DNA from: an uncultured Candidatus Saccharibacteria bacterium
GTDB taxonomy: Bacteria > Patescibacteriota > Minisyncoccia > Phycocordibacterales > SBAW01
DNA: 64,000 nt
Direction of reading: 5' to 3'
NCBI GenBank assembly: GCA_964482995.1
Contig: CAYZZC010000002.1
Location: forward strand, 1,074-65,073
This document shows, piece after piece, positions 6,542 through 57,992 of this stretch; position 1 is the stretch's first letter, and every line of letters begins with the position of its first letter. The notes below the pieces were generated by a model, which had not been told where the DNA came from, did not search any database, and saw only the letters and a program-made list of their open reading frames with translations. The position numbers and the translations under genes are program-made.

Positions 6542-8275
6542 GTGATGCGAGAAGACCCTTCTGTCGTTACCTACTTTGCAGAAACCAATTCCCGCGGCAA
6601 GCAGGTGCCTTTTGGTATCAAGCGCGCCGACCGTGCGCGCCACATGTATATAATCGGCAAGACAGGCATGGGCAAGTCGACCTTGCTTGAGAACCTGGCG
6701 ATCCAAGATATCCGCAACGGCGAGGGTATGGCGTTTATAGACCCGCACGGCTCTACAGCCGACAGGATCCTCGAGTATGTCCCCGAACATCGCATTAAAG
6801 ACGTAGTCTACTTTGCGCCGTTTGATATGGAGCACCCTGTTGCGTTTAACGTCATGGAGGATGTCGGCTACGACAAACGCCACTTGGTGGTCTCCGGGCT
6901 CCTCTCAGCCTTTCGCAAGATCTGGGTAGACGCATGGAGTGCCCGCATGGAGTACATCCTCTCCAACACACTGCTCGCTCTTTTGGAGTACGAAGGTTCG
7001 ACGCTCCTGGATGTAAACCGCATGCTTATCAACAAAGCCTTCCGCAAAAAAGTGGTGGAGAATGTCACCGACCCGATTGTAAAAAGTTTTTGGGTCGACG
7101 AGTTTGCAAACTATACCGACCGATACACCCAAGACGCCACCCCTGCGATCCAAAACAAGATTGGCCAGTTTACCAGCAACCCCCTGATCCGCAATATTGT
7201 GGGGCAGCCAAAATCTTCTTTCGACATCCGCAAAATAATGGATGACAAAAAGATCCTCATTATCAACCTCTCCAAGGGGCGGGTGGGGGAGGTAAACGCG
7301 ACACTGCTTGGCTCGATGCTTGTCACCAAGATTTATCTTGCTGCTATGTCGCGTGCCGATGTTGCTGCGGAAGAGCTTAATGAGCTGCCCAGTTTTTATT
7401 TTTATGTGGACGAGTTCCAAAACTTTGCTAACGAGAGCTTCTCGGACATACTCTCCGAGGCGCGTAAATATAAATTACGGCTCATTATTGCGCACCAGTA
7501 TGTCGAGCAAATGGAGGAGGAGGTACGAGATGCAGTGTTTGGTAACGTGGGTACCACTATCGCGTTTCGTGTCGGGCCTTTTGACGCAGAAACACTAGAG
7601 ACTATTTTTAGCCCACAGTTTGAGGCTACCGACCTGGTCAACTTAGGTTTTGCGCAGATTTATCTGACTCTCATGATCGACGGTGTCGGCTCACCACCCT
7701 TTAGCGCAACCACGATGAAGCCGTTTGACCCACCACCGCAAAAGTTTGTTGATGCGGTGATCGCCAACTCGCGCGCGCAGTTTGCAAAACCGCGCGCCAC
7801 AGTGGAAGAAGATATACGAAAATGGAATGAGCTTGAGCCGGTAGAGACCACTGCCAACAAAGCAAAACCAAAAAGCGATTATGCGCCGGCTCGCAAGGCC
7901 GAGCCTCTTGCACAGAGGCCAGCTCCAGCAAAACCTGCTGTGCAGCCGAAACATGCTGCGCCTATAGAGCATAAAGTGCCCACGCCGGTAGTAGAAAAAA
8001 AGATCGAGCCAAAAGCGCCACCAGCACCCCCACTTGATGGTGCAAAGAGTTTGCGTGAGGCTCTCGCGCAAGTAACTGGTAATAAATCTATACCTCCATC
8101 ACCACCTTCGCAGCACGCCCCGGATCTAAAAGAGACTTTGCACACTATTGCTCCTAAAGCAGAGGCTCCAAAACCACAAGAACCGGCTGGGTTGCCAGAA
8201 AATGTCTTGCGTGAGATGCTATCGGTCGATGAAGTCGATGACACAGAGTCGCCGTTTGAGCGGCCGGATAAGTAA
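6542..8275 (+). CDS. TraD/TraG/VirD4-like AAA ATPase (type IV secretion DNA-binding-domain family) with ~170-aa Pro/Ala/Lys-rich C-terminal tail
   Basis: Walker A IIGKTGMGKST, then FIDPHG. Walker B region ILIINLSKG...YVDEFQNF. Low-complexity tail AKPKSDYAPARKAEPLAQRPAPAKPAVQPK... Confidence 0.6.
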   Translation: MMREDPSVVTYFAETNSRGKQVPFGIKRADRARHMYIIGKTGMGKSTLLENLAIQDIRNGEGMAFIDPHGSTADRILEYVPEHRIKDVVYFAPFDMEHPVAFNVMEDVGYDKRHLVVSGLLSAFRKIWVDAWSARMEYILSNTLLALLEYEGSTLLDVNRMLINKAFRKKVVENVTDPIVKSFWVDEFANYTDRYTQDATPAIQNKIGQFTSNPLIRNIVGQPKSSFDIRKIMDDKKILIINLSKGRVGEVNATLLGSMLVTKIYLAAMSRADVAAEELNELPSFYFYVDEFQNFANESFSDILSEARKYKLRLIIAHQYVEQMEEEVRDAVFGNVGTTIAFRVGPFDAETLETIFSPQFEATDLVNLGFAQIYLTLMIDGVGSPPFSATTMKPFDPPPQKFVDAVIANSRAQFAKPRATVEEDIRKWNELEPVETTANKAKPKSDYAPARKAEPLAQRPAPAKPAVQPKHAAPIEHKVPTPVVEKKIEPKAPPAPPLDGAKSLREALAQVTGNKSIPPSPPSQHAPDLKETLHTIAPKAEAPKPQEPAGLPENVLREMLSVDEVDDTESPFERPDK

Positions 8276-9074
8276 AAATCTATTTATTGGTGCTATTTTG
8301 TGTGCCTCCTGTGTTGGTGTGCCTGGGTCTGTACAAGCCTCAATACAAATAACCGAGATTATGTACGACCTGCCGGGTGGCGACACCGGCCGTGAGTGGG
8401 TTGAGGTCACCAACACAGGGAGCGCCACCGTTAACCTAACGACTTATCGGCTTTTTGAGGCAGACACTAACCACAAAATATCCATTGCTTTAGGTGGAGC
8501 GGTGCTGGCGTCAGGAGCATCGGCAGTCATTGCAGATAATGCAGCAAAATTTAAAACAGACTGGCCCACGTACACCGGGGTTCTTTTTGAAAGCGCATTC
8601 TCTCTTTCAAATACAGGCGAAACTTTTTCGCTTAAAAATGGCACATCAACTACTGAAGACTCTGTTTCTTATACCTCGAGCTGGGGCGGGGCGGGGGATA
8701 GCGGCTCGCTCCATCGAGAGGGAAATTCTTTTGTTTCTGCACTGCCTACCCCGGGAGTATTTCCTGGGGTTCTTGCACCAGTACCGAAGGCAGAAAAGCC
8801 CGCACCGATAGTAAAAGACACTTCTGCAGCTACAAAAAATAAAACAACAAAAACAATCGTTACCGCTTCGTCGAAACAAGTAGCTGCTGTGCAAAACTCT
8901 GATGTAGACACTACCCCAACCAACCCCTTGCTGTTTTGGATATTGGGCCTTGCAGGCATTGTCGCACTAGGTGTTGCAGGAGTGGTATATGCAGGTAGCG
9001 GGCTGTCGCCACGTACTCCTTTTTCTCAAGTGACTAAAGGCACTAAAGACGAGTTTAAAATCATTGAAGATTAG
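8229..9074 (+). CDS. Lamin-tail-domain (LTD) secreted protein with C-terminal TM anchor
   Basis: Signal peptide MKSMTQSRRLSGRISKNLFIGAILCASCVGVPGSVQA. LTD signature ITEIMYDLPGGDTGREWVEVTNTGSATVNL...SLSNTGETFSLKNG. C-terminal helix LLFWILGLAGIVALGVAGVVYA. Start chosen inside the 3' end of the upstream gene; a TTG at 8298 is an alternative. Confidence 0.55.
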   Translation: MKSMTQSRRLSGRISKNLFIGAILCASCVGVPGSVQASIQITEIMYDLPGGDTGREWVEVTNTGSATVNLTTYRLFEADTNHKISIALGGAVLASGASAVIADNAAKFKTDWPTYTGVLFESAFSLSNTGETFSLKNGTSTTEDSVSYTSSWGGAGDSGSLHREGNSFVSALPTPGVFPGVLAPVPKAEKPAPIVKDTSAATKNKTTKTIVTASSKQVAAVQNSDVDTTPTNPLLFWILGLAGIVALGVAGVVYAGSGLSPRTPFSQVTKGTKDEFKIIED

Positions 9075-10001: not shown

Positions 10002-11188
10002 AACGCATCCTTATCTTTAGTCTCGCATATTATCCGAGCAACGTAAGCGGAGCTGAAGTTGCGATAAAAGAAATAACCGACCGTATACCGCGAGAGGAAA
10101 TTGCTTTTGATGTGATTACTCTGCGCTTTGAAAAAAGCGCGCCACTTGTTGAGCAAATAGGAAATGCGCAGGTGTATCGTGTTGTGGGAGGACCTTCCTA
10201 TGTAGCCAAAACATTTTTTCCATTTTTTGCCGCAATAAAGGCCTATCGCTTGCATCGCGCATTCCACTACGACGGTTGGTGGGCCATGATGAGCTATATG
10301 TTGTTCCCGATTGTGTTGTTGCGTTTGTTTGGTGTGCGGTTGCCCTATGCACTGGCTATCCAAGAAGGCGACACGTTTGAGTACATGTTTGGTCGGCCTC
10401 ATATACGATTTTTGCTTCCACTTTTGCGTATAGGGTTTAAAAACGCTTCCGTTATCCAAACTATTTCAAAATATTTAGCAGGGTGGCCGAAGCGCTTCGG
10501 GTATAAAGGCCCACTTGAGGTTATACCAAATGGGTTTAACCCCTCGTTTCTTACTCGTGAGTATCCCCCGCACGAACTCGACGCGCTTAAAAAGAAACTT
10601 GGTATCAAACAAGACGAAGCAGTGCTTGTTACTGTTTCTCGTTTGGTAAAAAAGAACGCAGTCGACGATTGTATCCGCGCACTTGCGCTACTTTCGCGCA
10701 GGACAAAACTTTTAGTAGTAGGCAGTGGGCCAGACGAGGCGATGCTTAAACAACTCGCCCTCGATTTAAAAGTCTCTGAGCAAGTGATATTTGTTGGGAA
10801 TGTCGACACCAGCGAGACAACTAAGTATAGAAAGATCTCAAATATTTTTGTGAGACCCTCGCGCTCAGAGGGTATGGGCAATTCGTTTGTCTCCTCGATG
10901 GCGCTCGGGCTCCCTGTTATCGCAACTCAAGAGGGGGGCATTGCCGATTTTCTTTTTGATGCAAAACGCAATCCAGAAAAACAGACGACTGGTTGGGCAG
11001 TAGACAAAGACTCGCCAGAGCAGATCGCGCAAGCGGTAGAGGACATACTTGGTAATCCTGAACATACAAAAAAAGTGGTCGAAGTGGCACGTAATCTTGC
11101 ACTCACTAAATTTGATTGGGACACTATCGCAAAAGATATGCAAAATAAGGTCTTTTCAAGGCTTTTTGATAAAGACCTTGCAAAATAA
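9998..11188 (+). CDS. Glycosyltransferase family 4 (GT-B, retaining)
   Basis: C-terminal EGMGNSFVSSMALGLPVIATQEGGIADFL (the EX7E region of GT4). ATGA overlap with the upstream gene. Confidence 0.8.
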   Translation: MKRILIFSLAYYPSNVSGAEVAIKEITDRIPREEIAFDVITLRFEKSAPLVEQIGNAQVYRVVGGPSYVAKTFFPFFAAIKAYRLHRAFHYDGWWAMMSYMLFPIVLLRLFGVRLPYALAIQEGDTFEYMFGRPHIRFLLPLLRIGFKNASVIQTISKYLAGWPKRFGYKGPLEVIPNGFNPSFLTREYPPHELDALKKKLGIKQDEAVLVTVSRLVKKNAVDDCIRALALLSRRTKLLVVGSGPDEAMLKQLALDLKVSEQVIFVGNVDTSETTKYRKISNIFVRPSRSEGMGNSFVSSMALGLPVIATQEGGIADFLFDAKRNPEKQTTGWAVDKDSPEQIAQAVEDILGNPEHTKKVVEVARNLALTKFDWDTIAKDMQNKVFSRLFDKDLAK

Positions 11189-11206
11189 CCAGGTTTGTGA
11201 TATAAT
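11178..11206 (+). promoter_or_regulatory. Strong sigma70-type promoter (TTGCAA-17 nt-TGaTATAAT, extended -10)
   Basis: -35 TTGCAA at 11178-11183, 17-nt spacer, TG at -15/-14, -10 TATAAT at 11201-11206. AAGGAAGGTGG RBS precedes the ATG at 11273. Confidence 0.6.
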
Positions 11207-11272
11207 ATACGATAGTAAATCATAGGAATAAACCTCTGATTTTTTGTTTGAAAAAAGAAAGGAAGGTGGCCA

Positions 11273-12100
11273 ATGGCCGCAAAACAATCAAAGTTCCCTC
11301 GTGTGGGGCTCCTTATCCGCGCCTACAACAAGAAGGGCAAACCGCAGGAAGATATCGACAAGGATATCGCCCGGGCGGTCAAAAATGCTCAAAAGGCTCT
11401 CAACGTTACAGTTGGTGGCCACCCTGTATTTACCCGTATTATTTTTTTGGTTCCAATCGACCATGATTACGGCGGCACATACTCGCTGTTGCGCACAGGT
11501 TTTGCGCAGGCTGGGATTGGTGAGGAAGTAGACGTGATTGAGGTCCATGGCCATCATTCGCGCGAAGCCCTCAACCAGGGCTTGCGTGAACTTGCGATGG
11601 GTGGTGTCGAGTATCGCGAAGTGGCTTTGGAGGATTGCGAACAATATGGCGTCGTTGTTTCTGGCAAGGCAATCGACTACGTCAAGCCAGCGACCATGAA
11701 GGCAATGTTTGAGGCATTTGCCTTGGGCGCCAAGGTCGTCGGCGTTGCAACCGACGAACTTGCCGAAATTGTTGGCAAAGGCCGGATCCAGAACACTTTT
11801 GCTGGGTGGGATCTGGGCGCACTCTTCGCACTTGAACCTTCAGGGTTTGACTCATTGGACGGTGTCGAAGAATACGCTCCAGCCGCGCGGCTTGTCCGCA
11901 AGCACGGTAGATGTATCGCAGTGCTTGAACCTTCTAATCTGCCTAAGCTCGATATCCGGAACAATCCTGATGGCAAGGCGCGGCATGCTGAGGTCATGAA
12001 TACCAAATCTGCACGGCAATTGGCAGAAGCAGAGCGCACTGGCATTTCTTTTGCCGAAACCGAAGCGGGCATGATGCCCGGATATCCGAAGCAAGTTTGA
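11273..12100 (+). CDS. Hypothetical protein (275 aa), stand-alone transcription unit
   Basis: Own consensus promoter, strong RBS and a perfect terminator. GC3-rich codon usage differs from its neighbours. No recognisable motif. Confidence 0.5.
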   Translation: MAAKQSKFPRVGLLIRAYNKKGKPQEDIDKDIARAVKNAQKALNVTVGGHPVFTRIIFLVPIDHDYGGTYSLLRTGFAQAGIGEEVDVIEVHGHHSREALNQGLRELAMGGVEYREVALEDCEQYGVVVSGKAIDYVKPATMKAMFEAFALGAKVVGVATDELAEIVGKGRIQNTFAGWDLGALFALEPSGFDSLDGVEEYAPAARLVRKHGRCIAVLEPSNLPKLDIRNNPDGKARHAEVMNTKSARQLAEAERTGISFAETEAGMMPGYPKQV

Positions 12101-12124
12101 AAACTTGCTTCTACACTACAACGA

Positions 12125-12158
12125 CCCGCTGGGTAAAACCAGCGGGCCTTTTTGTTTG
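12125..12158 (+). terminator. Rho-independent terminator
   Basis: Perfect 8-bp stem CCCGCTGG/CCAGCGGG with loop GTAAAA, followed by CCTTTTTGTTTGTT. Confidence 0.8.
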
Positions 12159-12172
12159 TTATAGTCTTTTAT

Positions 12173-13081
12173 ATGCGGGTTTTAATGATAACGGGCGACA
12201 AAAGCATTTCAGTGCCCGGGACCCCGGGCTTTGCGCGTTTTGAGCTCCAGCGCTCACAAGTCGAGGATCTCGCCCTCGTGTATTGGGGGCGAGGCAACCT
12301 TTGGCCTAAACTACCAAAAGGGCATTTCGACATTGTGACAGCACAGGACCCGTTTTGGCGCGGGCTTTTTGCTTGGTATGTCTCGCGGTTGCTTCATGCA
12401 CGGCTTAACATACAAGTGCATGCCGATCTCGATGCGCAAAGTTTTATAAAAAAGATTGTGGCGCGTTTTGTTTTAAATCGTGCCAGCTCAGTGCGTGTTG
12501 TGTCTGAGAGAGTAAAAAAGCAAGTCGAGGTTTTTGGTGTGCGAGCGCCAATACAAGTGTTGCCCGTGTATCTCGATATAGAGCGTTTTCGTGGTTTACA
12601 GCGGCAACCAGGCCTGCAGAAAACGATATTGTGGGTGGGGAGGTTTGAGACAGAAAAAGACCCTTTGCGGGCAATTTCTGTTTTGAAAGAAGTCCGCGAG
12701 AGTGGGGTTGATGCAAAACTTATTATGCTTGGTTCTGGCAGCATGGAACATAAATTAAAGCAAAGGGCACAAAGACTCCCTGTTGAGTTCCCTGGGTGGC
12801 AGGACTCTGCGGCGTATCTGGGGAGGGCAGATGTAGTGCTCTCTACCTCTTTACACGAGAGTTGGGGGGCAAGTATTGTTGAAGCACTTGCAGCTGGGGT
12901 GCCAACAGTGGCACCAGATGTTGGTATAGCGCATGAAGCAGGAGCCATAGTAGTGTCTCGCCAGGAGCTTGCGCAAGCGCTCACAGGGGCGCTACGATCA
13001 GACACAAAAGTGGAATTAAAGTTACAATTGCTCACACGAGAAGAATGGGGGCATGCATGGAAAGAATCATTACTACTATGA
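12173..13081 (+). CDS. Glycosyltransferase, GT1/GT4-like (GT-B)
   Basis: C-terminal STSLHESWGASIVEALAAGVPTVAPDVG (E-x7-E-like nucleotide-sugar binding region). Start MRVLMITGDK chosen downstream of the terminator T-run. Confidence 0.7.
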   Translation: MRVLMITGDKSISVPGTPGFARFELQRSQVEDLALVYWGRGNLWPKLPKGHFDIVTAQDPFWRGLFAWYVSRLLHARLNIQVHADLDAQSFIKKIVARFVLNRASSVRVVSERVKKQVEVFGVRAPIQVLPVYLDIERFRGLQRQPGLQKTILWVGRFETEKDPLRAISVLKEVRESGVDAKLIMLGSGSMEHKLKQRAQRLPVEFPGWQDSAAYLGRADVVLSTSLHESWGASIVEALAAGVPTVAPDVGIAHEAGAIVVSRQELAQALTGALRSDTKVELKLQLLTREEWGHAWKESLLL

Positions 13082-13986
13082 AAATTGGATTTATAGGACA
13101 AGGTTTTATAGGCAAGAGTTACGCCGACGACTTCGAAGGGCGGGGGTTAAGTGTCGTGCGCTACGGTTTGCAGCCAGAGTATGTTGGTAATAAAGAAATA
13201 ATTAAGGGGTGTGATCTTGTGCTTATTGCGGTTCCTGCGCCGACGCTACCAACTAGCGAGCTGCGCAACGATAGTCACCCAAAGGTGAGATTTGAGGATA
13301 AAAATATCCGCGAGGGGGTGGGGCTCACAAAACAGGGAGCAGTTGTAGTTATTAAGTCGACTATGCCACCAGGTACAACAGAGTCTATACAAGAACAATA
13401 TCCGGACAGAATTATTTTGCACAGCCCGGAGTTTTTACTTGAGACAACTGCCGCAAAAGACGCCTCAAGCCCCGAGCGCAACATTGTAGGTATACCAAAA
13501 GAGACCTCCGCACATCGTGTTGCTGCAGAACAATTTTTGTCATTGTTGCCAAAAGCGCCCTACACACTTATATGTGACGCAAAGACAGCGGAACTTATTA
13601 AATATGGCAGTAATGCATATTTGTTTACCAAGATAGTTTTTTCAAACATGTTCTTCCAACTGGTCGAAAAGTACGGAGCAGATTGGGAAGTAGTGCGTGA
13701 GGCTATTGGCCGTGACCCGCGTATTGGCCCCGCACACATGGACCTCCACCTTAAGGACGAACCAGAGGGTGTCTACCGCCGCCGTGGTGCCGGCAGAAGC
13801 TGTTTTATAAAAGACTGGGCCCAGCTCTCTGAGCTGTATGCGCAAGAGCTACCCGAGGATACCAATACTATCCAAGCACTACGCGGGTTCGAGTATAAAA
13901 ATGCAGAGCTTTTGCGCGAGTTTGATCGCTACGTTAATTTGCTCGAGGGAGTGTACGGGCCTGACGCTGGCAAAAAAAATATATGA
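13078..13986 (+). CDS. UDP-glucose/GDP-mannose dehydrogenase-family protein, short form (NAD-binding and central domains only)
   Basis: MKIGFIGQGFIGKSYADDF Rossmann motif, HSPEFLLETTAAKDASSPERNIVG (compare NPEFLREGxAxxDxxxPDRIVIG) and LIKYGSNAYLFTKIVFSNMF (compare ELxKYxxNAFLATKISF). About 300 aa, so the usual C-terminal UDP-binding domain appears absent. Confidence 0.5.
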   Translation: MKIGFIGQGFIGKSYADDFEGRGLSVVRYGLQPEYVGNKEIIKGCDLVLIAVPAPTLPTSELRNDSHPKVRFEDKNIREGVGLTKQGAVVVIKSTMPPGTTESIQEQYPDRIILHSPEFLLETTAAKDASSPERNIVGIPKETSAHRVAAEQFLSLLPKAPYTLICDAKTAELIKYGSNAYLFTKIVFSNMFFQLVEKYGADWEVVREAIGRDPRIGPAHMDLHLKDEPEGVYRRRGAGRSCFIKDWAQLSELYAQELPEDTNTIQALRGFEYKNAELLREFDRYVNLLEGVYGPDAGKKNI

Positions 13987-14783
13987 AACACTACGATTTT
14001 GCTGTTGGCTTGGTCAAAGAAGCTGGGGAGTTTATCAAACAATCACGCCTAGGAAACATACAAGTATTTCATAAGGGAACTGATGAGCGCGACGTGGTAA
14101 CTAAAATTGATTTAGAGGTCAGTGGGCTCTTAATCTCGCGTATACAACAAAACTTTCCCGAGCATCGTATTTATTCTGAAGAAGGCGCTGGTGGAGAAGA
14201 GTCGTCTACCCAGGAGTATGAATGGGTGCTCGACCCTGTCGACGGTACAGCAAACTTTTCTCGCGGGATTCCGCATTTTGCAGTGTGCGTGGGCCTTCTC
14301 CACAAAGGTGTGCCTATGGTGGGGGCGATTTATAATCCTATCACAGGTGAATTATTTAGTTTTGAAAAGGGGCGTGGTGCGTTTTTAAATGATCAGCCTA
14401 TCCATGTGTCCTCCACTACCGACCCCGCACAGGCGCAAGGTATCTTAGTAATCGGACACAAGGCGCCACTTTGGGATTGGGGGGTCGCTTTGTATAGAGC
14501 ATTTCTTGAACACTTAAAAAAGTTAAAAGCGTTTGGATCTTCCTCACTTGACCTCTGCTTTGTGGCAGCAGGACGTGCTGAGGTAGTGGTGTATGGAACC
14601 TTTAGCGCAAAGGATTCTGCCGCTGCAGTGGGGCTTCTCAGAGAAGCAGGGGGAGAGATCTACACACCGCAAGGCGAGCCAATACTTCTTTCGAAAAAGG
14701 CTCAGCCGATAGTCGTAACAAATAACAAAGAGATGTTTAAAAATCTGGAGCAGCATCTTAGTGTCGACCTATTGCCTTCCTAA
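13983..14783 (+). CDS. Inositol monophosphatase family protein (SuhB/CysQ-like sugar phosphatase)
   Basis: EEGAGG...WVLDPVDGTANFSRGIPHFAV metal-binding motifs. Confidence 0.75.
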   Translation: MKHYDFAVGLVKEAGEFIKQSRLGNIQVFHKGTDERDVVTKIDLEVSGLLISRIQQNFPEHRIYSEEGAGGEESSTQEYEWVLDPVDGTANFSRGIPHFAVCVGLLHKGVPMVGAIYNPITGELFSFEKGRGAFLNDQPIHVSSTTDPAQAQGILVIGHKAPLWDWGVALYRAFLEHLKKLKAFGSSSLDLCFVAAGRAEVVVYGTFSAKDSAAAVGLLREAGGEIYTPQGEPILLSKKAQPIVVTNNKEMFKNLEQHLSVDLLPS

Positions 14784-15890
14784 AATCTCTTGCTGTCGAG
14801 CCTTTTCATCCTCTGTGCGCAACATATCTATTTTTGTCACATAGGCGGACACAACAGATTCCGGTACAGGCATGTCTTGCAGAACTGCATTCATCGCTTC
14901 TCTCCATAATATCAAACGCTCCTCAGTGAGAGTACGCAGGTTGCCAGAGGTTTTAGAAAGTGCTTGTGCATAAAAGGCAAGAAGGAAACCTATTTTATAG
15001 ATACGCATAAGTCGGAGCACCAAATATTCTTCCTCGCCGCGGTTTGTGCGGACATACTCAGCCAACGTACGCTCAAGCGCTGCATTGTGGTGGATCATAA
15101 AGTTGAGGAACCTAGCCCACCCCTCATATTTGTTGCCGAAATGGATCGAGGCGTAATCAAGCAAAAAAATATCTCGGTTTGCAACGCGTAAGTTGTTAGG
15201 CACAAAGTCTGCATGTGTTAGGAAACCGCAATATCTAGCGATGGTGGTTTTATTGGCGTGCAAAAAATCTCGCGCTTTCTTGAAAAGGTCTTTAAACTCT
15301 GGTCGCTCAGGCAGATGTGTAAATACTTTCTCCTGGTAGGTGTCAAACGCACGCAGATAATCTTCTGCGGTCTCCATGCCGAATGTCTTTTTGATTATCT
15401 GCGCGTGCTCGTTTGTTGTCGCGTGCACACCCTCTTGTGTTTCAAAAGCGCGCAGTGCGAGAAAAAACTGTTCGTCGAGTGTATGCTCAATAAAAGCACG
15501 TTCTTGCTCTATATAAGAGGTGATCGAAAATACGAACTCACCGTGGCGAGTATGTAAAAGCTCTTCCGGTGTGCGGAAAGCTCTCACCGCAAATTTGATC
15601 CGGTGGAGTACTTCTCTGCACTCACGTTCACGCTCTATCTCCTTTATGCCCTGGGGGTTGTTGCTTGCTTTGATAATGACACGCGTCCCGTCGCTTATGC
15701 GTCTCCCAGTGAGCACAAGCTTGAGGCCTCCACCTCCTACATCGCGCGCTGTGTTTGTGAGGTAGCGCTCGCCTCCCGTGTGCACCTGGCGTTCATCAAG
15801 TGAGAAACCGAGTGTAGTAAGTATTGGTTTTATCTTCTCGAGCACTTGGTCGCGGTAAGCTTCCCACGCGGCTTGGTCGTTTGCGGACAT
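14769..15890 (-). CDS. Phosphotransferase (APH/choline-kinase-like protein-kinase fold)
   Basis: LTHADFVPNNLRV (Brenner HxDxxxxN) and LLDYASIHFGNKYEGWARFLNFM (D-x-E region) are typical of the aminoglycoside-phosphotransferase-like kinase family. Confidence 0.55.
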   Translation of the reverse strand: MSANDQAAWEAYRDQVLEKIKPILTTLGFSLDERQVHTGGERYLTNTARDVGGGGLKLVLTGRRISDGTRVIIKASNNPQGIKEIERERECREVLHRIKFAVRAFRTPEELLHTRHGEFVFSITSYIEQERAFIEHTLDEQFFLALRAFETQEGVHATTNEHAQIIKKTFGMETAEDYLRAFDTYQEKVFTHLPERPEFKDLFKKARDFLHANKTTIARYCGFLTHADFVPNNLRVANRDIFLLDYASIHFGNKYEGWARFLNFMIHHNAALERTLAEYVRTNRGEEEYLVLRLMRIYKIGFLLAFYAQALSKTSGNLRTLTEERLILWREAMNAVLQDMPVPESVVSAYVTKIDMLRTEDEKARQQEILGRQ

Positions 15891-27466: not shown

Positions 27467-29350
27467 ATGTCAGAGGGGTCAAACATACGCACTATAGAAA
27501 CTGCGCACGGACGCTTTAGTGTTGATATGTTGCGCGACAAAAAGATAGGCACGAACTTACAAGAGGGGAGCTACCACCAAGAAGATACACTTGAGCTTCT
27601 AAAAAATTTTATTACGCCGGACAGTGTAGTTGTTGATATTGGCGCACATATAGGCACTTTGGCAGTCCCTCTCGCAAAACTTGCCGGGAAGGTTATTGCG
27701 TTTGAGCCAGCGCCAAGCACCTTTGCACTTCTTAAAAAAAATATCGAACAGAATAATCTCACCATTGATGCACGCAACAAAGGGCTGGGGAGCCGCTCTG
27801 GCTACGCATCACTCCAAACAGAACATTTTGCAAATGCCGGAGCAAATACATTAGAGCTTGGTCAAGGTTCAATAGAGGTGAGCACACTTGATGACGAGGT
27901 CGAGTATGCCGATGTTATAAAGATAGACGTAGAGGGTATGGAACTCGCAGTATTTGAAGGTGGGGTGGAGCTTATAGAAAAAGTGCGCCCCATTATTTTT
28001 AGCGAGGTTAATTTATCCGCGCTGCGTGCGCATGGCTCTTTGCCGCAAAAGATCGAGCAGTTTTTGTACAAACGCGGATATGACCTCTACGTGCCTCTGG
28101 GGGACAAAAAGCTTGGCAAAATAGGGAGCCTTAGCCTCGTGTCTCTTTTAAAGGCCCCTCGTGCATATTTATTGAGGAGCCAAAGCGCCCCCTTTGATAT
28201 CTTGGCTATCCCACGGGGAAAATCCATACCAATACCGCACATTTCAGCATCAGCAACCTACTGGTATTTAGGAGCAGATTATTTTAAAAAACAAACAAAG
28301 AGACTAAGACAATTCTTTTTTGATAAAAAAAATAACAGCACATTGCTCGTTCGTAAGGCGGTGACGTTTCGCGCCTCCTCAATAGGAGACTCTCTTATGG
28401 GGAAATATCTACTTGAGAATATCCACGCAGCTTTTCCTGAGGCACGCTGTTCGATATTAGTTGCAGGAAAGGCGGGTATGATCCGCGACCTCCTCGCGGC
28501 GTATCCGTGGATCGAGATTATAGAGGCAAATAAAAGCCAACCCCTCAGTATTATTACTGCTTTTAGAAAGCTTTTTTTGAGCGATGCAACTGTTACCCAA
28601 TACTCGGGGCGTGGGCAGTTTGCAACCGCTACAAAGCTTTTTGCACGAGCAATTACGCGCCGTGGCCGCTTTGCGGGGTTTACTGATGCGTGGCCACTCA
28701 ACACATACTTATATGACCGTCTTATCCCGTTTAGTATGCGCAGAGCGATGCGGCTGCATGAGTGTGACGCACTCGAGGCTTTAGGTATTGAAGTGAGCAT
28801 CAAAGACATTACTCTCCTCGCAAAAGAATGGAATCCTGTGCTCGAGCGCCTTCATCTTGAAGAAAAGAAATATATTATTTTGAATCTTTTTTCAAGCACG
28901 CCTGCGCGCGGGCTCTCGCTTGCGCGGCAAATAGATATTGCGCGTGGTTTGTATGACATATTTGGTAAAGATAAAAAAATTATTCTCACCGGCGGGAGCT
29001 TTGACGCGCCGATAGTGGAGAAAATAAAAGAAGCCGTGCCCGAAATCCTTGATGCGCCAGGCCTTTCAATGCAAGAACTCATAACGCTTGTCGCAAAAAG
29101 TGCCGGGAGCGTGAGCTTAGACACGGGTGTCGGGCATATCGGGGCGCAGGTGGGTGTGCCGCTTGTGATAATGCGCACGTGCTGGGGCTACAACTGGTGG
29201 AACAAAGATAACTACGGCCGCGAGGGGATAGAGGTACTTTCTCGTGAGGACTTATGTGTTAATGGCCACGTAAGCAAAAACTTCCCCGACTGTCTCGACC
29301 AAATCGCAACGAGCAATATCGTAGCCGCCGCAAAGGAACTCTTTATTTGA
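27467..29350 (+). CDS. Bifunctional protein: N-terminal FkbM-family methyltransferase fused to C-terminal GT9 (heptosyltransferase-like) glycosyltransferase
   Basis: Residues 1-200 have VVDIGAHIGTLAVPLAKLAGKVIAFEPAPSTFALLKKNI (FkbM). Residues ~280-627 have GVGHIGAQVGVPLVIM and GT9-like organisation. Confidence 0.6.
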   Translation: MSEGSNIRTIETAHGRFSVDMLRDKKIGTNLQEGSYHQEDTLELLKNFITPDSVVVDIGAHIGTLAVPLAKLAGKVIAFEPAPSTFALLKKNIEQNNLTIDARNKGLGSRSGYASLQTEHFANAGANTLELGQGSIEVSTLDDEVEYADVIKIDVEGMELAVFEGGVELIEKVRPIIFSEVNLSALRAHGSLPQKIEQFLYKRGYDLYVPLGDKKLGKIGSLSLVSLLKAPRAYLLRSQSAPFDILAIPRGKSIPIPHISASATYWYLGADYFKKQTKRLRQFFFDKKNNSTLLVRKAVTFRASSIGDSLMGKYLLENIHAAFPEARCSILVAGKAGMIRDLLAAYPWIEIIEANKSQPLSIITAFRKLFLSDATVTQYSGRGQFATATKLFARAITRRGRFAGFTDAWPLNTYLYDRLIPFSMRRAMRLHECDALEALGIEVSIKDITLLAKEWNPVLERLHLEEKKYIILNLFSSTPARGLSLARQIDIARGLYDIFGKDKKIILTGGSFDAPIVEKIKEAVPEILDAPGLSMQELITLVAKSAGSVSLDTGVGHIGAQVGVPLVIMRTCWGYNWWNKDNYGREGIEVLSREDLCVNGHVSKNFPDCLDQIATSNIVAAAKELFI

Positions 29351-29414
29351 CATAACCTATAAAGTGTAATACTCTGTTCATGGAACTAGAAACCGGGAAC
29401 TAGAGGAGTATCCC

Positions 29415-30239
29415 ATGTCCTATGAGCTCTTTGTTATCGACCACAAGCCTGAACTCGATGAGCAGGAGAAAGGCCGTGTAGCGGCTCTGAAAAACAAGCT
29501 CGCAACCGCCAAGAGTCTTGGTCTGAAAGCGCAAGCTGGTTCGATCAAGACTGACATTACTACCATTGAGCGCGGTCCTCTTATAATGACCCCGCCCATG
29601 ACCGACAGCGAGCTGACCATCTGGCGTGCCTGGCTGCCAACGGCCTACACCGACATCAAAGATGATCAAAATTACGGGCTGGCAGACTACAACTTCGACC
29701 GCATCCCGAGCCCTGTGCTCAAGATGTGGCAGAAGCACAGAGAATCCGGTCTGTTTGAGCGGTTCGAAATCTGGACACCAGAAATTGTTCAACCAGATCC
29801 GATCCTCGTTGGCGTCGTTGGCCGCGTTCGGTATTTGCTTGCCCGCTGGGGCGAGTCCGATGCCAACCTGGTCTCCTTCGACGACATCAAGCGCGAGCTG
29901 GTGCGCCGTTGGCACAACAATGAATCCCTCGGCAATGAATCGACCAGTGAAAGGTGTGCCCGTTACGATCGAGTCGGTGACGCGTTCTCCTCGGCGGTTA
30001 TCTACATGTTATGCGTGGGCATTCCTGTCTGTATAACTCTTCTTGTGTTGTTGGAAGCTCTTCTGTACCCGGCAGGCGCCACGATCAGCGGTCTCTTGGC
30101 TGCTGTTTCGATTGGAGTCGCCAGATTCTTCTATGCTCGCAAGAGTATGACGAAGAAAGTACTGCAATCGAGCACCATCATGCAGGCGATTGCAAAGGAC
30201 GATTCGGTTTCGCGCGAACTGTATCCAGCTTCGGCCTGA
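29415..30239 (+). CDS. Hypothetical protein with C-terminal double TM anchor, stand-alone unit
   Basis: AGAGGAG RBS 6 nt upstream of the ATG, terminator downstream, GC3-rich codons unlike its neighbours. Hydrophobic C-terminus VIYMLCVGIPVCITLLVLL...ISGLLAAVSIGVA. Confidence 0.45.
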   Translation: MSYELFVIDHKPELDEQEKGRVAALKNKLATAKSLGLKAQAGSIKTDITTIERGPLIMTPPMTDSELTIWRAWLPTAYTDIKDDQNYGLADYNFDRIPSPVLKMWQKHRESGLFERFEIWTPEIVQPDPILVGVVGRVRYLLARWGESDANLVSFDDIKRELVRRWHNNESLGNESTSERCARYDRVGDAFSSAVIYMLCVGIPVCITLLVLLEALLYPAGATISGLLAAVSIGVARFFYARKSMTKKVLQSSTIMQAIAKDDSVSRELYPASA

Positions 30240-30264: not shown

Positions 30265-30309
30265 AGCCCTCGCTCTAACCTTATGGTTGGTGCGGGGGCT
30301 TTTATTTTG
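30265..30309 (+). terminator. Rho-independent terminator (long imperfect hairpin plus T-run)
   Basis: AGCCCTCGCTCTAACC-ttat-GGTTGGTGCGGGGGCT followed by TTTATTTTG. Confidence 0.6.
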
Positions 30310-32026: not shown

Positions 32027-32976
32027 ACAAACTTTTAGAAGCATATAAGCGGATGCTTTTCATACGAGTTGCCGAGCAAGAGCTTGTACAACTGTATCTC
32101 GACAAAAAGTTATTTAGTATGGTGCACTTTTATGTCGGCCAAGAGGCTGTGGCGGTTGGTGTATGCGACGCACTAAAACCCGAGGACAAAGTGATGGGCA
32201 ATCATCGCTCGCACGGGCACTACCTCGCCAAGGGCGGCAACTTCCGCAGGATGGCGTGCGAGCTCCTCGGCCGTGCAAACGGCCTGGCGCACGGCAAGGG
32301 CGGCTCGATGCACATGATCGACAAGTCGGTTAACTTTGTCGGCTCAACCCCGCTTTTGGGGAGCGTTGCGCCGCTTGCAGCCGGTGTTGCGTTTGAACAA
32401 AAGTTTAATAATCGAGACACTATCACTACTGCCTTTTATGGCGACGGCGCCTCAGAAGAGGGCGTGGTGTACGAGACATACAACTTGGCGGCGCTGTACC
32501 AAGTGCCGCTGCTCCTGATTGTTGAAAATAATCTCTTTGCTATCAACTCAAAACTAAAAGACCGCCGCGCGCCCGGCCATACTCTTGAAAAAATTGTATC
32601 AGGGTTCGGTGTCGAGTATAGAAAAGCAGACGGGAACGATTACAAAGACGTGCATGCAAAAGCAAAAGAACTAGCCGACCTTGTCCGCCGAGAAAAGCGG
32701 CCAGCCGTGCTTGAGTGTGTTACCTACCGCCACATGGCGCACTCAACACCCCTTATGGATGAAAAACATCGTGAGGCAGATACGCTTGAAGAGCGCACCA
32801 AGCAAGACCCCCTTACTAAGCTTAAGGCTGAGCTTCTTGCGAGCGGCATTACAGAAGGAGAGCTTGCTACTTTAGAAAAAACATTTAAAGAGGAAGTGCA
32901 GGCTGATATCAATTTCGCGCTCGAGTCGCCGTTCCCCACAAAGGAAGAAATGTATACCGACATGTATGCAGAATAA
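32023..32976 (+). CDS. ThDP-dependent 2-oxoacid dehydrogenase E1 component, alpha subunit (PdhA/AcoA-like)
   Basis: FYVGQEAVAVGV, HRSHGHYLAKG, ThDP motif region YGDGASEEGVVYETYNLAAL. ATGA overlap with the ADH. Confidence 0.85.
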   Translation: MNKLLEAYKRMLFIRVAEQELVQLYLDKKLFSMVHFYVGQEAVAVGVCDALKPEDKVMGNHRSHGHYLAKGGNFRRMACELLGRANGLAHGKGGSMHMIDKSVNFVGSTPLLGSVAPLAAGVAFEQKFNNRDTITTAFYGDGASEEGVVYETYNLAALYQVPLLLIVENNLFAINSKLKDRRAPGHTLEKIVSGFGVEYRKADGNDYKDVHAKAKELADLVRREKRPAVLECVTYRHMAHSTPLMDEKHREADTLEERTKQDPLTKLKAELLASGITEGELATLEKTFKEEVQADINFALESPFPTKEEMYTDMYAE

Positions 32977-34015
32977 TTACAATATGGAACCAAGGATTAT
33001 CAAATACGCCGAGGCGATTAAAGAGGCCACCAAGCAGATACTCGAAAGCGACAAAACCGCTTTTCTTATGGGCCTTGGTGTCCCGCAGGGTGCCGCAGGC
33101 ACTGTCGTGGGGCTTAAAGAGCTCTTCCCCACCCAAGTGCTTGATACACCGACCTCTGAGGCGGCGCTCACCGGGCTAGCGGTCGGGGCGGCTATCAGCG
33201 GCCTGCGCCCCATGGTCTACCATGAGCGCGTTGAGTTTAGCTTGCTCGCCAGCGACGCTATCTTTACCCAGGCTGCAAAATGGAACTACATGTTTGGCGG
33301 CAACAACCCAGTGCCGGTAGTGCTGCGTATTGCCGTTGGCCGACAGTGGGGCAATGGCCCACAGCACTCCCAGGCGCTCTACGGCCTCTTTGGAGCGGTG
33401 CGGGGGCTTAAAGTGGTTATACCCTCGACCCCCCACATGATGAAGGGCCTGCTAATATCCGCTATCCGCGATAACAACCCTGTCGTGATTCTAGAGCCCC
33501 GTTGGCTCTACCAGGTAAAGGGGCATGTGCCAACTGAGATGTTTACTGAGCCGCTCGACCGCGCACGCGTGGTTAAAGAAGGGACTGATCTCACGGTGGT
33601 TGCCTACGGCGACGGTTTTGTAGACACACTTGCTGCGCTCAAGCTCTTGCCGGAGGATATCAGTGTTGAGATGATCGACCTCGTGAGCATCAACCCGATT
33701 GACCACCAAACGATCGCGAAGTCGGTTGAGAAAACAGGCCGGCTTCTGTGTGTCGACAGCACCAACAGCGCATTTAGCATTGGCTCAGAGATAATCGCTA
33801 AAGTAGCGCAAAATCCGGTGGGCTTAACTCAAGCGCCCGTTGGAGTCGCGGCGCCCGATGTGCCGGTGCCCACCTCGCCCGCCTTAAGCGAGTTTTGGTA
33901 CCCAACTAAAATCGACATCGCAAACGCGATTTTGAAAATGTTTGGGAAACCCGAGCTCGATATAAAACTCCCGTTCGAAGAGCTCCACCTTGCCCCGACC
34001 ACCACGCTCGAGTAA
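32966..34015 (+). CDS. 2-oxoacid dehydrogenase E1 component, beta subunit (transketolase-like)
   Basis: Transketolase pyrimidine-binding and C-terminal domain pattern (LMGLGV..., VVIPSTPHMMKGLL, DLTVVAYG). Confidence 0.85.
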   Translation: MQNNYNMEPRIIKYAEAIKEATKQILESDKTAFLMGLGVPQGAAGTVVGLKELFPTQVLDTPTSEAALTGLAVGAAISGLRPMVYHERVEFSLLASDAIFTQAAKWNYMFGGNNPVPVVLRIAVGRQWGNGPQHSQALYGLFGAVRGLKVVIPSTPHMMKGLLISAIRDNNPVVILEPRWLYQVKGHVPTEMFTEPLDRARVVKEGTDLTVVAYGDGFVDTLAALKLLPEDISVEMIDLVSINPIDHQTIAKSVEKTGRLLCVDSTNSAFSIGSEIIAKVAQNPVGLTQAPVGVAAPDVPVPTSPALSEFWYPTKIDIANAILKMFGKPELDIKLPFEELHLAPTTTLE

Positions 34016-36954: not shown

Positions 36955-37420
36955 AGAGGTCCTGCGTGCAACTAACGCTGCGCGCAAAGAAGGTAAAAAA
37001 ATAGTCGCTACAAACGGCTGTTTTGACATCATGCATGTGGGCCACGTACAAAGCTTTACTCAAGCAAAAAAACTGGGGGATATTTTGGTAGTGGGTATAA
37101 ACTCAGACGCCTCAGTCCGCACCAATAAGGGCGACCTGAGGCCGATAGTCCCCGAGCGCGACCGAGCCACGGTGGTAGCGGCTCTTGCGGTGGTAGACTA
37201 TGTATTTATTTTTCCTGAAAAAACTCCTTTCTCCTGGATAAAAAAGATGCGCCCAGATATCCAGGTGAAGGGTGTTGATACAAAAAACCATCCTGACTTC
37301 GCCGCTCAAAAGCGCACACTCGAAAAAATCGGCGCCAAGTTCGTACTGCTCCCGTTGGTTAAAGGCAAATCAACGACAAAAATTATTGAAAAGATAACCC
37401 GCGCGTACAACAAAAATTAG
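36932..37420 (+). CDS. Cytidylyltransferase-fold adenylyltransferase, HldC/RfaE-domain-II-like (D-beta-D-heptose-1-phosphate adenylyltransferase)
   Basis: IVATNGCFDIMHVGHVQ (HxGH motif) and VVGINSDASVR. Confidence 0.75.
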   Translation: MNKVKTLKEVLRATNAARKEGKKIVATNGCFDIMHVGHVQSFTQAKKLGDILVVGINSDASVRTNKGDLRPIVPERDRATVVAALAVVDYVFIFPEKTPFSWIKKMRPDIQVKGVDTKNHPDFAAQKRTLEKIGAKFVLLPLVKGKSTTKIIEKITRAYNKN

Positions 37421-37794
37421 CTCTTTTTCTGGCTGTCACCCTTGCCGATGCGGTAGGAGTCGCTCTCTTCGTGGGTGGTAGAAACCTCTACAATGACCGA
37501 AGGCTCAAGTGCCACAAGCTGGTGGGGGGTTGAGGGCGGGATATGCACTACGCTGCCAGGCCCAAGCTCGGTTATGATGCGGTCTGCGTTGGCGAGGTTG
37601 TAGTACCTTAGCTCTAGTTTGCCATCGAGCACATACCAAGCCTCATCTTTTTTCTTGTGGTAGTGGTCGCTAAACGTGGCTCCCTTGTTAAACTTAAGGA
37701 GCTTGCCGCAGTACTTCTCGGTATTGATGATCCATATCTCGGCCCCCCAGCCCTTGGGGTGTATCTCCGCCTGTAGTATCTCTAAGTCGCTCAT
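37417..37794 (-). CDS. Cupin-domain protein (possible sugar isomerase/epimerase)
   Basis: GKLELRYY...GPGSVVHIPPSTPHQL is a two-motif cupin signature. 125 aa. Confidence 0.55.
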   Translation of the reverse strand: MSDLEILQAEIHPKGWGAEIWIINTEKYCGKLLKFNKGATFSDHYHKKKDEAWYVLDGKLELRYYNLANADRIITELGPGSVVHIPPSTPHQLVALEPSVIVEVSTTHEESDSYRIGKGDSQKKS

Positions 37795-57289: not shown

Positions 57290-57306
57290 TGTAAGACAAA
57301 GAAAAT

Positions 57307-57343
57307 GGCCGGAGTCTGGGACTCCGGCCGGTTATACAATTCA
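57307..57343 (-). terminator. Intrinsic terminator (perfect 10-bp stem), mainly serving the minus-strand gene
   Basis: GGCCGGAGTC-tgg-GACTCCGGCC. On the minus transcript it is followed by AUUUUCUUUGUCUU; on the plus side the T-run is poor. Confidence 0.65.
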
Positions 57344-57349
57344 GCTCAC

Positions 57350-57859
57350 TTAGGTTGCAGAGGCGGGAGTTACGTTTAACCGTCGCAGTAGATCGCGAAC
57401 GATCCTATCGTAGGCCGGGCGGAAGACCGAGGCCTCTTGATCGTTAGGACTGCTGATCACTCTCACCATCGTAGCGAGTTGATCCCACTCAGGTCCTATA
57501 CCGAGATGGCTGAAGGCCATCTCTACTTCGTTGTACCGAGCTTCCGGCTGTAAAGGGAGCAGCTTGATTTGTGTGGCGAAACGGCTAACGTCTCCACCAG
57601 ACATAGTAACCCACTTCTCTTCATGTGGACCATTGAAGAGTCTGCTAATGCGGCCCTGCTTTTGTAGGTAGGCTGGTGTCGCATAATAGCCACGCATCCG
57701 CATAAAAGTGTTTTCAGCTGTTGCAACCCCACAAGGTAGCGCATAGCTGTGCACCTCCCATTTTCGCTCAGGTGTTTCCTGGAAAGTTGCCGCAGCGCGG
57801 AACGCATCCAGAATCTCTCGGCCCGTACATGTACGGGGCAGAGTTAATTTGATCGACAT
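57350..57859 (-). CDS. Hypothetical protein (169 aa), stand-alone unit
   Basis: GGAG RBS 9 nt upstream of the ATG on the minus strand, terminator downstream, GC3-rich codons. No recognisable motif. Confidence 0.45.
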   Translation of the reverse strand: MSIKLTLPRTCTGREILDAFRAAATFQETPERKWEVHSYALPCGVATAENTFMRMRGYYATPAYLQKQGRISRLFNGPHEEKWVTMSGGDVSRFATQIKLLPLQPEARYNEVEMAFSHLGIGPEWDQLATMVRVISSPNDQEASVFRPAYDRIVRDLLRRLNVTPASAT

Positions 57860-57992
57860 GGCTTATCTCCAAGGTTCTTTTCATACGCATGTTTGGGTGC
57901 GTACTCCCAAAAATATAATACTGTATTTATAAAGTAGTGTCAAGTTTTGGTAAGGACAGAAACTTAAAAGCTGTTATAGTGTTGTATATTCT

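Follow-up and report, generated by a model that had tools for sequence, protein, structure and literature searches.

Transferases of the GT-A fold generally provide the nearest described parallels to the first of the genes considered here. GpgS, mannosyl-3-phosphoglycerate synthase and mannosylglycerate synthase keep a DXD-type metal site, and in metal-independent GT-A enzymes, such as the GT14 core-2 GlcNAc-transferase, basic side chains replace the divalent cation. On the RNA side, described leader elements include the 5′-terminal stabilizers of the ompA and aprE leaders and the cryIIIA STAB-SD, as well as the autoregulatory hairpins in the leaders of ribosomal-protein operons. Bacteria of the candidate phyla radiation (CPR) depend on cell-surface contact with their hosts, and their surface glycans are uncharacterized; we know of almost no gene regulation described in this lineage. 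We analyzed a 64-kb stretch of contig CAYZZC010000002.1 (hereafter the window) and three genes within it, at 11273-12100 (gene 1), 29415-30239 (gene 2) and 57350-57859 on the minus strand (gene 3). A first-pass annotation had called these three open reading frames, all of which were confirmed, and had lumped them as one kind. We found that the three genes are unrelated to each other and do not form one class: one encodes a glycan-locus protein with an enzyme fold, and the other two are lineage-specific unknowns. Our best explanation, which we consider probable when taken as a whole, has four parts. The genes would be three independent, autonomous, monocistronic transcription units, as predicted from their signals, inside otherwise operonic glycan genes; gene 1 would encode an atypical, DXD-less GT-A-fold enzyme that belongs to the glycan cluster and whose family lies outside all profile libraries; gene 2 would encode a cytoplasmic protein that is specific to Parcubacteria and held at the membrane by a transmembrane hairpin; and gene 3 would encode a small basic protein whose mRNA probably has a conserved hairpin element at its start. 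Gene 1 is an atypical version of the known GT-A kind, and genes 2 and 3 are lineage-specific autonomous genes.

To compare expression signals, we used the 62 genes of the window as the base, and all ranks given for Shine-Dalgarno (SD) pairing, codon deviation and G+C content at synonymous third codon positions (GC3s) are out of these 62. The SD-antiSD duplexes of genes 1, 2 and 3 had energies of -7.5, -8.4 and -6.4 kcal/mol, ranking 6, 5 and 9, whereas the window median was -2.7 kcal/mol, which is near no pairing. The window was scanned for intrinsic terminators, taken as a compact intergenic hairpin followed by a T-tract with ΔG ≤ -17 kcal/mol. Just four passed, and three of them lie directly 3′ of genes 1, 2 and 3, each a stable G+C-rich hairpin with a U-tract downstream of the stop codon. 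Compared with shuffled sequences, these terminator regions had z-scores of -3.8 (gene 1), -6.1 (gene 2) and -4.0 (gene 3). The 61-nt region of the gene 1 terminator folded at -20 kcal/mol, with 0 of 200 shuffles as good; that of gene 2, a -27 kcal/mol hairpin (-34.5 kcal/mol for the 75-nt region), was missed by the consensus scan. Intrinsic terminators were kept, directly after the stop codon, in all nine orthologous gene 1 loci over which the conservation of promoters and terminators was counted, and those loci of genes 2 and 3 that were sampled had terminators as well. The flanking genes are closely packed, many with -4 overlaps, whereas genes 1-3 are each set off by 51-133 nt on either side. 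These numbers bear out the strong ribosome-binding site and the intrinsic terminator that the first-pass annotation had assigned to each gene, as well as the overlapping start and stop codons it had seen in the flanking glycosyltransferase genes. Judged by these features, the expression signals of genes 1-3 are stronger than those of their operonic neighbors.

Gene 1 had also been credited with a near-consensus extended -10 promoter, and this claim held, with 10 of 12 consensus matches and a conserved placement. The GT4 gene upstream ends in a stop codon at 11186-11188, and its last few codons contain the predicted -35 element. The promoter scan by itself was not above chance (4 sites vs 5.7 expected). 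Seven of the nine orthologous loci have a promoter at the same place that matches 9-11 of 12 positions, six of them with TG before the -10; where the upstream GT4 gene adjoins, the orthologous -35 lies in its final codons or just 5′ of them. Separate transcription would set the level of gene 1 independently of the flanking transferases. Downstream of the predicted promoter, the leader contains a hairpin followed by a U-tract, which may either terminate the upstream operon or act as an attenuator; 2 of 200 window shuffles folded equally well. Seven of the nine loci have a hairpin with a U-tract whose end lies 25-33 nt upstream of the gene 1 start codon (the window, L007, L009, L011, L020, L023 and L025; L numbers denote loci of relatives). 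A riboswitch in this leader is unlikely, as the leader is only about 60 nt long and had no Rfam hit.

We compared the gene 1 region on four independent metagenome contigs and in eight GTDB representative-genome loci, among which L024 duplicates the contig of L011. Ten of these loci cover both flanks (the four contigs and six GTDB loci, counting the duplicate), and their gene order was identical, so that the synteny check suggested at first pass came out positive for gene 1. Gene 1 lies directly 3′ of an epimerase gene and a GT4 gene in all 10. It is followed by a gene for an IMPase-family phosphatase and then a divergently oriented one for a 373-aa protein, sometimes with a GT4 gene and a UDP-sugar-dehydrogenase-like gene between; a second epimerase gene and then a minus-strand GT4 gene end the cluster. 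Where a locus covers the cluster partially, the covered part agrees with this order. Over five genomes, the pairwise identities of gene 1 were 46-62%, parallel to those of the neighbors. Because of this parallel and the fixed synteny, gene 1 appears to have been inherited with the locus, contrary to the earlier suggestion that it might be independently acquired cargo. Its gene order and identities mark it as part of the fixed core of a conserved cluster, passed on vertically.

The 373-aa partner has K74, E88, H226-x-D228-x4-N233 and D245 invariant in five orthologues, a protein-kinase-like/APH signature; APH/choline-kinase-like small-molecule kinases are marked by a VAIK-type Lys, a helix-C Glu, an HxDxxxxN catalytic loop and an Asp further downstream. 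One orthologue has a weak precomputed match to the APH model of Pfam, and the window protein had no match beyond chance in Pfam, NCBIfam and PDB profile searches. Two neighbors of gene 1 have unusual lengths. The UDP-glucose/GDP-mannose dehydrogenase-like protein encoded at 13045-13986 is short (313 aa) and has the N-terminal domain only, from profile position 72, without a C-terminal domain, yet relatives keep it at this length. In the GT4 encoded next after gene 1 (12152-13081), the N-terminus is about 55 aa shorter than in its orthologues in L006 and L007.

None of the three proteins had a match in Pfam, NCBIfam, PHROGs or PADLOC, and a literature search found no description of these protein families or of the gene 1 cluster. 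For gene 1, nothing was found at E ≤ 1 in Pfam and NCBIfam, and sequence and profile searches of the PDB gave chance hits only. A word-indexed search of 5.8 billion proteins retrieved 15 relatives, and profile matching against 1.84 billion cluster representatives retrieved 268 clusters of the family at 50% identity. When 37 sampled family members were searched against Pfam, no glycosyltransferase model matched, and there were just three single-member weak hits. We rejected a match to KdpD/2r8r (E 0.16 and 0.006), which spans 60 residues and is unsupported by the fold search. A match of the gene 1 profile to P0149, a 4551-aa spider aciniform spidroin, at E 1e-40 is an artefact of 22 short repeated stretches. 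The AlphaFold2 model of gene 1 on the 15-sequence alignment reached a pLDDT of 87 and a pTM of 0.86, and its order of strands and helices is that of the Rossmann-like GT-A core. The first-pass statement that none of the three genes has a recognisable motif stands at the sequence level (Pfam, NCBIfam, PHROGs, PADLOC and PDB sequences); for gene 1, whose model is confident, it is false at the fold level.

The model shares its order of strands and helices with GT2-type enzymes of the GT-A fold (PcManGT, 6yv7; DPMS, 5mlz; the catalytic domain of BcsA, 4p00), as well as a G...LN.G helix after strand 3, seen in gene 1 as G93-H-H-S96...L100-N101, and D65 would be the counterpart of their acidic residue after strand 2. 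D65 is almost invariant and, in an alignment that is statistically non-significant, falls on the DDxSxDGT region of GT2. E199-E200, within a G-V-E-E motif, are at what we take to be the position of the ED/TED-type motif of inverting GT2 enzymes. The conserved residues further include D161-E162, R171-Q-N-T-F176, F192-D193 and R237-H238 through K245. Unlike GT2-type enzymes, the gene 1 proteins lack significant similarity to PF00535 (Glycos_transf_2) or other curated Pfam glycosyltransferase models, and they are soluble proteins of 254-275 aa without transmembrane or interface helices.

A further difference concerns the metal site. A DXD (or D/E-x-D/H) motif after strand 4 is absent from gene 1, which reads S130-G-K132 after the strand formed by residues 125-129. 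Alignments by hhalign of the gene 1 family with the two GT2 proteins of the window were non-significant (E 0.1-0.2) and served as a register check only. In the one at a sub-significant E of 0.095, residues 55-110 of gene 1 fall on residues 30-83 of the window GT2, and an ungapped extension lands S130 and K132 on D93 and D95 of the DAD motif of that protein. Ser130 is invariant over the 37 diverse family members, while the third position is K, E, G or other. The window subfamily has Lys at 132 with G-H-H-S at 93-96. In a second subfamily, the third position is mostly Glu, residues 93-94 read G-D, and G-G-F-D is followed by 25-35 inserted residues. The two positions are thus coupled, GHHS going with S[GN]KA and GD..C with S-x-E-A.

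Two further kinds of GT-A enzyme are instructive here. Soluble enzymes that add a sugar to small phosphorylated acceptors and are paired with a phosphatase (glucosyl-3-phosphoglycerate synthase, GpgS, of GT81, 7p5l; mannosyl-3-phosphoglycerate synthase, 3f1y and 2wvk; mannosylglycerate synthase of GT78, 2bo4) resemble gene 1 in that it is invariably linked to the IMPase-family phosphatase gene. The phosphatases paired with these enzymes are, however, from other families, and unlike the compatible-solute operons of the GpgS type, gene 1 sits in a large, multi-transferase surface-glycan cluster. The GT14 core-2 GlcNAc-transferase is like gene 1 in having no DXD, and the conserved K132 of gene 1 would sit at the position of the second Asp; the two have no sequence or specific structural relationship.

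On the basis of these comparisons, we propose that gene 1 would use a nucleotide-activated donor to transfer a glycosyl (or phospho-glycosyl) group. D65 would hold the nucleotide, and E199/E200 would stand where inverting GT2 enzymes have their acidic catalytic motif. The DXD metal site would have been swapped for Ser130-x-Lys132 together with His94-His95, and in the sister subfamily for Ser-x-Glu and Asp. This swap of S-x-K and His-His against S-x-E and Asp suggests that, in the window subfamily, the lysine touches the donor phosphates directly, in a metal-free manner.

An alternative that we regard as unlikely, though it fares best among the rivals, is that gene 1 is a sugar-1-phosphate (or polyol-phosphate) nucleoside triphosphate-transferase that makes an activated donor together with the kinase-like and the IMPase-like proteins. 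Kinases and nucleotidyltransferases work in parallel arrangements in AmgK/MurU, LicA/LicC and HddA/HddC, and the two partner genes are linked to gene 1 wherever the flank is covered. The missing DXD motif would also fit, as would Arg16, nearly invariant at the end of strand 1, which could bind phosphates; Lys20 is conserved in the close subfamily only. However, gene 1 shows neither the G-x-G-x-R loop nor the best structural match of a sugar-phosphate nucleotidyltransferase (NTP_transferase, IspD or MobA-like). Its strand 1 reads G-L-L-[LI]-R-x-[YF]-[AS]-x, a GT2-like pattern, the E-E at 199-200 and the long C-terminal helix also resemble GT2, and dedicated nucleotidyltransferases are already encoded in the window.

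We consider it very unlikely that gene 1 has lost catalysis and uses its GT-A fold to scaffold, regulate or chaperone the flanking GT4 enzymes, a reading close to an idea of the first-pass annotation. The canonical DXD metal site is gone, separate transcription would suit an accessory factor needed in other amounts, and gene 1 is less conserved than its neighbors (37-44% vs 44-79% over five full-length GTDB loci). Against this, the 15-sequence alignment has 45 invariant positions, many of them charged or polar. Over the 37 members, which share 26-46% identity, N101 and S130 are invariant and D65, N174, T175, E199, E200 and K245 nearly so. Because conservation of this kind is typical of an active site, and because the coupled His-His/Lys vs Asp/Glu swaps resemble the remodeling of an active site rather than decay, we prefer the transferase-fold enzyme.

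The third subject of the first-pass claims was codon usage, the three genes having been described as GC3-richer than their neighbors. This was clearly so for gene 2 only (GC3s 0.613, rank 3, z 2.2); gene 1 (0.528, rank 9, z 0.95) and gene 3 (0.500, rank 16, z 0.5) did not stand out, and unrelated genes of the window equal or exceed all three, namely 37417-37794 (0.69), 32966-34015 (0.64) and 62136-63953 (0.60). More distinctive than GC3 was the deviation of synonymous codons from the pooled rest, for which the three genes took ranks 1, 4 and 9 (z 8.5, 4.8 and 2.4). The codon-statistics check proposed at first pass was therefore positive for codon deviation, and for GC3 in gene 2 only. The orthologues of gene 1 had the top GC3 among their neighbors in three of four orthologous loci, and for this reason the raised GC3 of gene 1 is a family trait, which in turn speaks against recent acquisition. 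Gene 2 orthologues likewise keep a raised GC3 in other genomes, above the adjacent ribosomal-protein and HU genes, whereas that of gene 3 and its relatives is not raised. High GC3 as a signature of expression was unsupported, because the ribosomal-protein and HU genes beside the gene 2 relatives are not GC3-rich. The view that all three genes are recently acquired foreign cargo whose composition reflects a donor genome has in its favor the deviating codon usage, the promoter and terminator of each gene and the differing contexts of the gene 2 and gene 3 relatives, one of which adjoins an rve integrase, but it is highly improbable given the fixed synteny and neighbor-like identities of gene 1 over five genomes, the GC3 offset that gene 1 and gene 2 orthologues share as a family property, the undeviating GC3 of gene 3, and the absence of PHROGs or PADLOC matches and of flanking repeats or mobile genes here.

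Gene 3 carries the second main result, which concerns its leader RNA. Eleven relatives of the protein (133-180 aa) were found; it had no domain match, and PDB sequence and profile searches gave chance hits only. A 162-aa open reading frame in L016 was considered as a paralogue and rejected. The leader hairpin was present in 10 of 10 gene 3 relative loci, which, with the window counted and the duplicates L018 and L032 set aside, gave nine distinct sequences. Every copy has the same order: a sigma-70 promoter, 6-7 nt, GGGAG, a 7-bp stem with the loop CCCAAACA, an A-rich spacer, GGAG and ATG. All nine distinct loci carry TTGACA (TTGACT in L029) and, 3′ of it, a -10-like hexamer separated from GGGAG by 6-7 nt. 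In the transcript, the hairpin would lie no more than about 5 nt from the predicted 5′ end. GGGAG is invariant, and so is the loop, save for one A-to-C change in one copy. In the stem, 63 of 63 cells were paired, with compensatory double changes in three of the seven pairs; 0 of 500 shuffles matched the observed percentage paired, double-change cell count or covariation score, and shifted registers collapsed. A covariance model scored the hairpin copies at 51-56 bits, with the next-best match in 338 kb at 17 bits.

The hairpin had no match in Rfam 15, whose only gathering-threshold match in the window was a tRNA, and a permissive Rfam search of 57800-58000 returned chance-level matches only (E 3-4). 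Fourteen exact matches to the hairpin pattern in IMG/VR are attributable to chance, as none forms the stem and none has gene 3. Two database proteins (P0060 and P0065) carry the hairpin element mis-translated as an N-terminal extension, MGVRTQTYAQQPKGVLQ. The covariation gives good support to the gene 3 leader hairpin as a new structural RNA motif that lies outside Rfam, and the gene 3 mRNA probably begins with this conserved GGGAG and hairpin element.

As a short hairpin near the predicted 5′ end, with an SD-like GGGAG and a position upstream of the true SD, the element resembles the stabilizer stem-loops of the ompA and aprE leaders, the cryIIIA STAB-SD and the leader hairpins of ribosomal-protein operons. 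It might control the stability of the mRNA or serve as an operator for an RNA-binding protein. Its position near the 5′ end would fit a 5′ stabilizer; the invariant loop and flank would instead suggest a specific recognition factor. It differs from these described elements in that the loop and 5′ flank are invariant across proteins that are only 43-58% identical, and this invariance argues for sequence-specific recognition rather than end protection alone. The relatives of gene 3 were found in a NeuB/ABC locus like that of the window, with a two-component system, with MurG/GltX and with an rve integrase. Gene 3, as judged from these partly non-glycan contexts, is in the glycan locus by position only.

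Gene 2 had 40 relatives, all from Parcubacteria/Patescibacteria, with 31-71% identity in the aligned set. They share the Trp-rich motifs WRAWLPTAY, FEIWTPE and LLARWGESD and a conserved C-terminal helix, whereas the hydrophobic region is poorly conserved. The AlphaFold model had a pLDDT of 89, and a fold search with it found no match. The membrane anchor proposed at first pass was borne out by the hydrophobic stretch 187-233 and by the helical hairpin modeled at 177-252. In two other genomes, gene 2 lies between the genes for ribosomal proteins L27/L9 and a protease, and beside HU and RNase Y. By these contexts, it has no constant link to glycan genes and is in the glycan locus by position only. 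The independent placement envisaged at first pass thus fits genes 2 and 3, whose relatives are in unrelated contexts and which nothing ties to glycan synthesis. The two-tier terminator stem of gene 2, with part of its sequence, is common to the relatives in L013 (about 6833-6871) and L014 (about 6821-6858), three sequences only; the proteins of these terminator-sharing relatives are only about 57-60% identical.

Several points weigh against our best explanation. The high expression of genes 1-3 was read from sequence signals only, the leader hairpin and U-tract of gene 1 could lower its expression, and the GC3 of the ribosomal-protein and HU genes of relatives is not above average. For genes 2 and 3, only two and five to six independent contexts, respectively, were seen. 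Gene 1 has no solved or annotated relative at the sequence level, by PDB and sequence searches. S130 and K132 were placed at the DXD site by secondary-structure order and the sub-significant hhalign match at E 0.095, and E199/E200 were put forward as the catalytic base from position only. The loss of DXD could mean another chemistry or a non-catalytic role.

A bolder reading would combine two claims, and we hold it only tentatively, as rather doubtful when taken jointly. The gene 1 family would be a new, CPR-centered, metal-free GT-A glycosyltransferase family in which Lys132 and His94/His95 replace the metal, with two charge-swapped subfamilies (His-His/Lys vs Asp/Glu), and the gene 3 hairpin would be a new protein-bound cis-regulatory RNA. 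As part of this reading, the hairpin is possibly bound by the basic gene 3 product itself, in an autoregulated, self-contained module that moves among Parcubacteria genomes.

A conserved transferase-fold enzyme that every profile library missed means that the enzyme inventory of CPR glycan loci is undercounted. With Ser-x-Lys in the place of DXD, a GT-A enzyme of this kind offers a natural test case for the fold working metal-free, and the covarying hairpin in the gene 3 leader is a new RNA element open to direct testing. For annotation, the case of gene 1 advises caution, as deviating codons and signals of its own did not mean foreign cargo. The positions of the features are listed in Table 1.

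Table 1. Predicted features of genes 1-3 and of the gene 1 partners in the window, and copies of the gene 3 leader hairpin in other loci (positions in the latter refer to the named locus)
Feature	Position	Strand	Description
Gene 1 promoter	11178-11206	+	TTGCAA (11178-11183), 17-nt spacer, TATAAT (11201-11206); TG at 11198-11199; 10/12 consensus matches
Gene 1 leader hairpin and U-tract	11217-11250	+	hairpin 11217-11242, -6.1 kcal/mol; end 30 nt before start codon
Gene 1 SD	11259-11269	+	AAGGAAGGTGG; -7.5 kcal/mol, rank 6 of 62
Gene 1 coding sequence	11273-12100	+	275 aa, soluble, predicted GT-A fold, DXD absent (Ser130-Gly-Lys132)
Gene 1 intrinsic terminator	12125-12156	+	hairpin 12125-12146, 8-bp stem (7 G-C), then T-tract
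IMPase-family phosphatase (gene 1 partner)	13983-14783	+	linked to gene 1 in every locus covering the flank
Kinase-like protein (gene 1 partner)	14769-15890	-	373 aa; motifs VIIK74, E88, H226-A-D-F-V-P-N-N233, D245
Gene 2 candidate promoter	29347-29375	+	TTGACA, 17-nt spacer, TACTCT; 9/12 matches, weak, non-significant alone; overlaps upstream stop codon
Gene 2 SD	29403-29408	+	GAGGAG; -8.4 kcal/mol, rank 5 of 62
Gene 2 coding sequence	29415-30239	+	274 aa; N-terminal helical hairpin, small alpha/beta domain, transmembrane helical hairpin, conserved C-terminal helix (modeled)
Gene 2 intrinsic terminator	30265-30309	+	two-tier stem 30265-30300, then TTTTATTTT
Gene 3 promoter	57915-57943	-	TTGACA, 17-nt spacer, TATTAT; 11/12 matches
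Gene 3 leader RNA element	57883-57908	-	GGGAG 57908-57904; 7-bp stem, 57904-57898 with 57889-57883; loop CCCAAACA 57897-57890
Gene 3 SD	57867-57870	-	GGAG; -6.4 kcal/mol, rank 9 of 62
Gene 3 coding sequence	57350-57859	-	169 aa, pI 9.0, soluble, no known domain
Gene 3 intrinsic terminator	57299-57329	-	10-bp stem 57329-57307, then ATTTTCTTT; -20.9 kcal/mol, z -4.0
Leader hairpin copy, L015	6951-6985		
Leader hairpin copy, L016	5586-5620		
Leader hairpin copy, L017	2823-2857		
Leader hairpin copy, L027	958-992		
Leader hairpin copy, L028	107-141		
Leader hairpin copy, L029	115-149		
Leader hairpin copy, L030	981-1015		
Leader hairpin copy, L031	555-589		

The window has a G+C content of 47% and, by Pfam annotation, is dense in genes for glycan synthesis. 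The transferases include several GT4, two GT2, GT9-like, GT47-like, PMT_2 and GtrA proteins. Sugar modification is represented by FkbM-type methyltransferases, RmlC/RmlD-type enzymes and nucleotide-sugar epimerases and dehydratases, and nonulosonic acids by NeuB and cytidylyltransferases; an ABC exporter, a TrwB/TraG-like ATPase and a lamin-tail-domain protein are also encoded. The relatives of the three genes bear names such as Parcubacteria, Paceibacterota, Yonathbacteria, Minisyncoccia and Patescibacteria, and this places the window in a CPR genome of the Patescibacteria (Parcubacteria/Paceibacteria-type).

The genes for the TrwB/TraG-like coupling ATPase and the lamin-tail-domain (often also PKD) protein are at 6542-9074, directly 5′ of the glycan cluster, and the pair is kept upstream in L006-L012 and L020-L026 wherever that flank is covered; DUF4015 and PGA_cap genes are frequent in the same region upstream of the relatives' glycan clusters. 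The GC3-high genes other than genes 1-3 encode a cupin (37417-37794, minus strand), a transketolase-like E1 beta subunit (32966-34015) and a B12-binding radical SAM enzyme (62136-63953), the last of which ranks second both for codon-usage deviation and for SD strength. The fourth strong intergenic terminator of the window is a bidirectional, terminator-like hairpin of -21 kcal/mol upstream of a tRNA gene (153-184 and 269-350).

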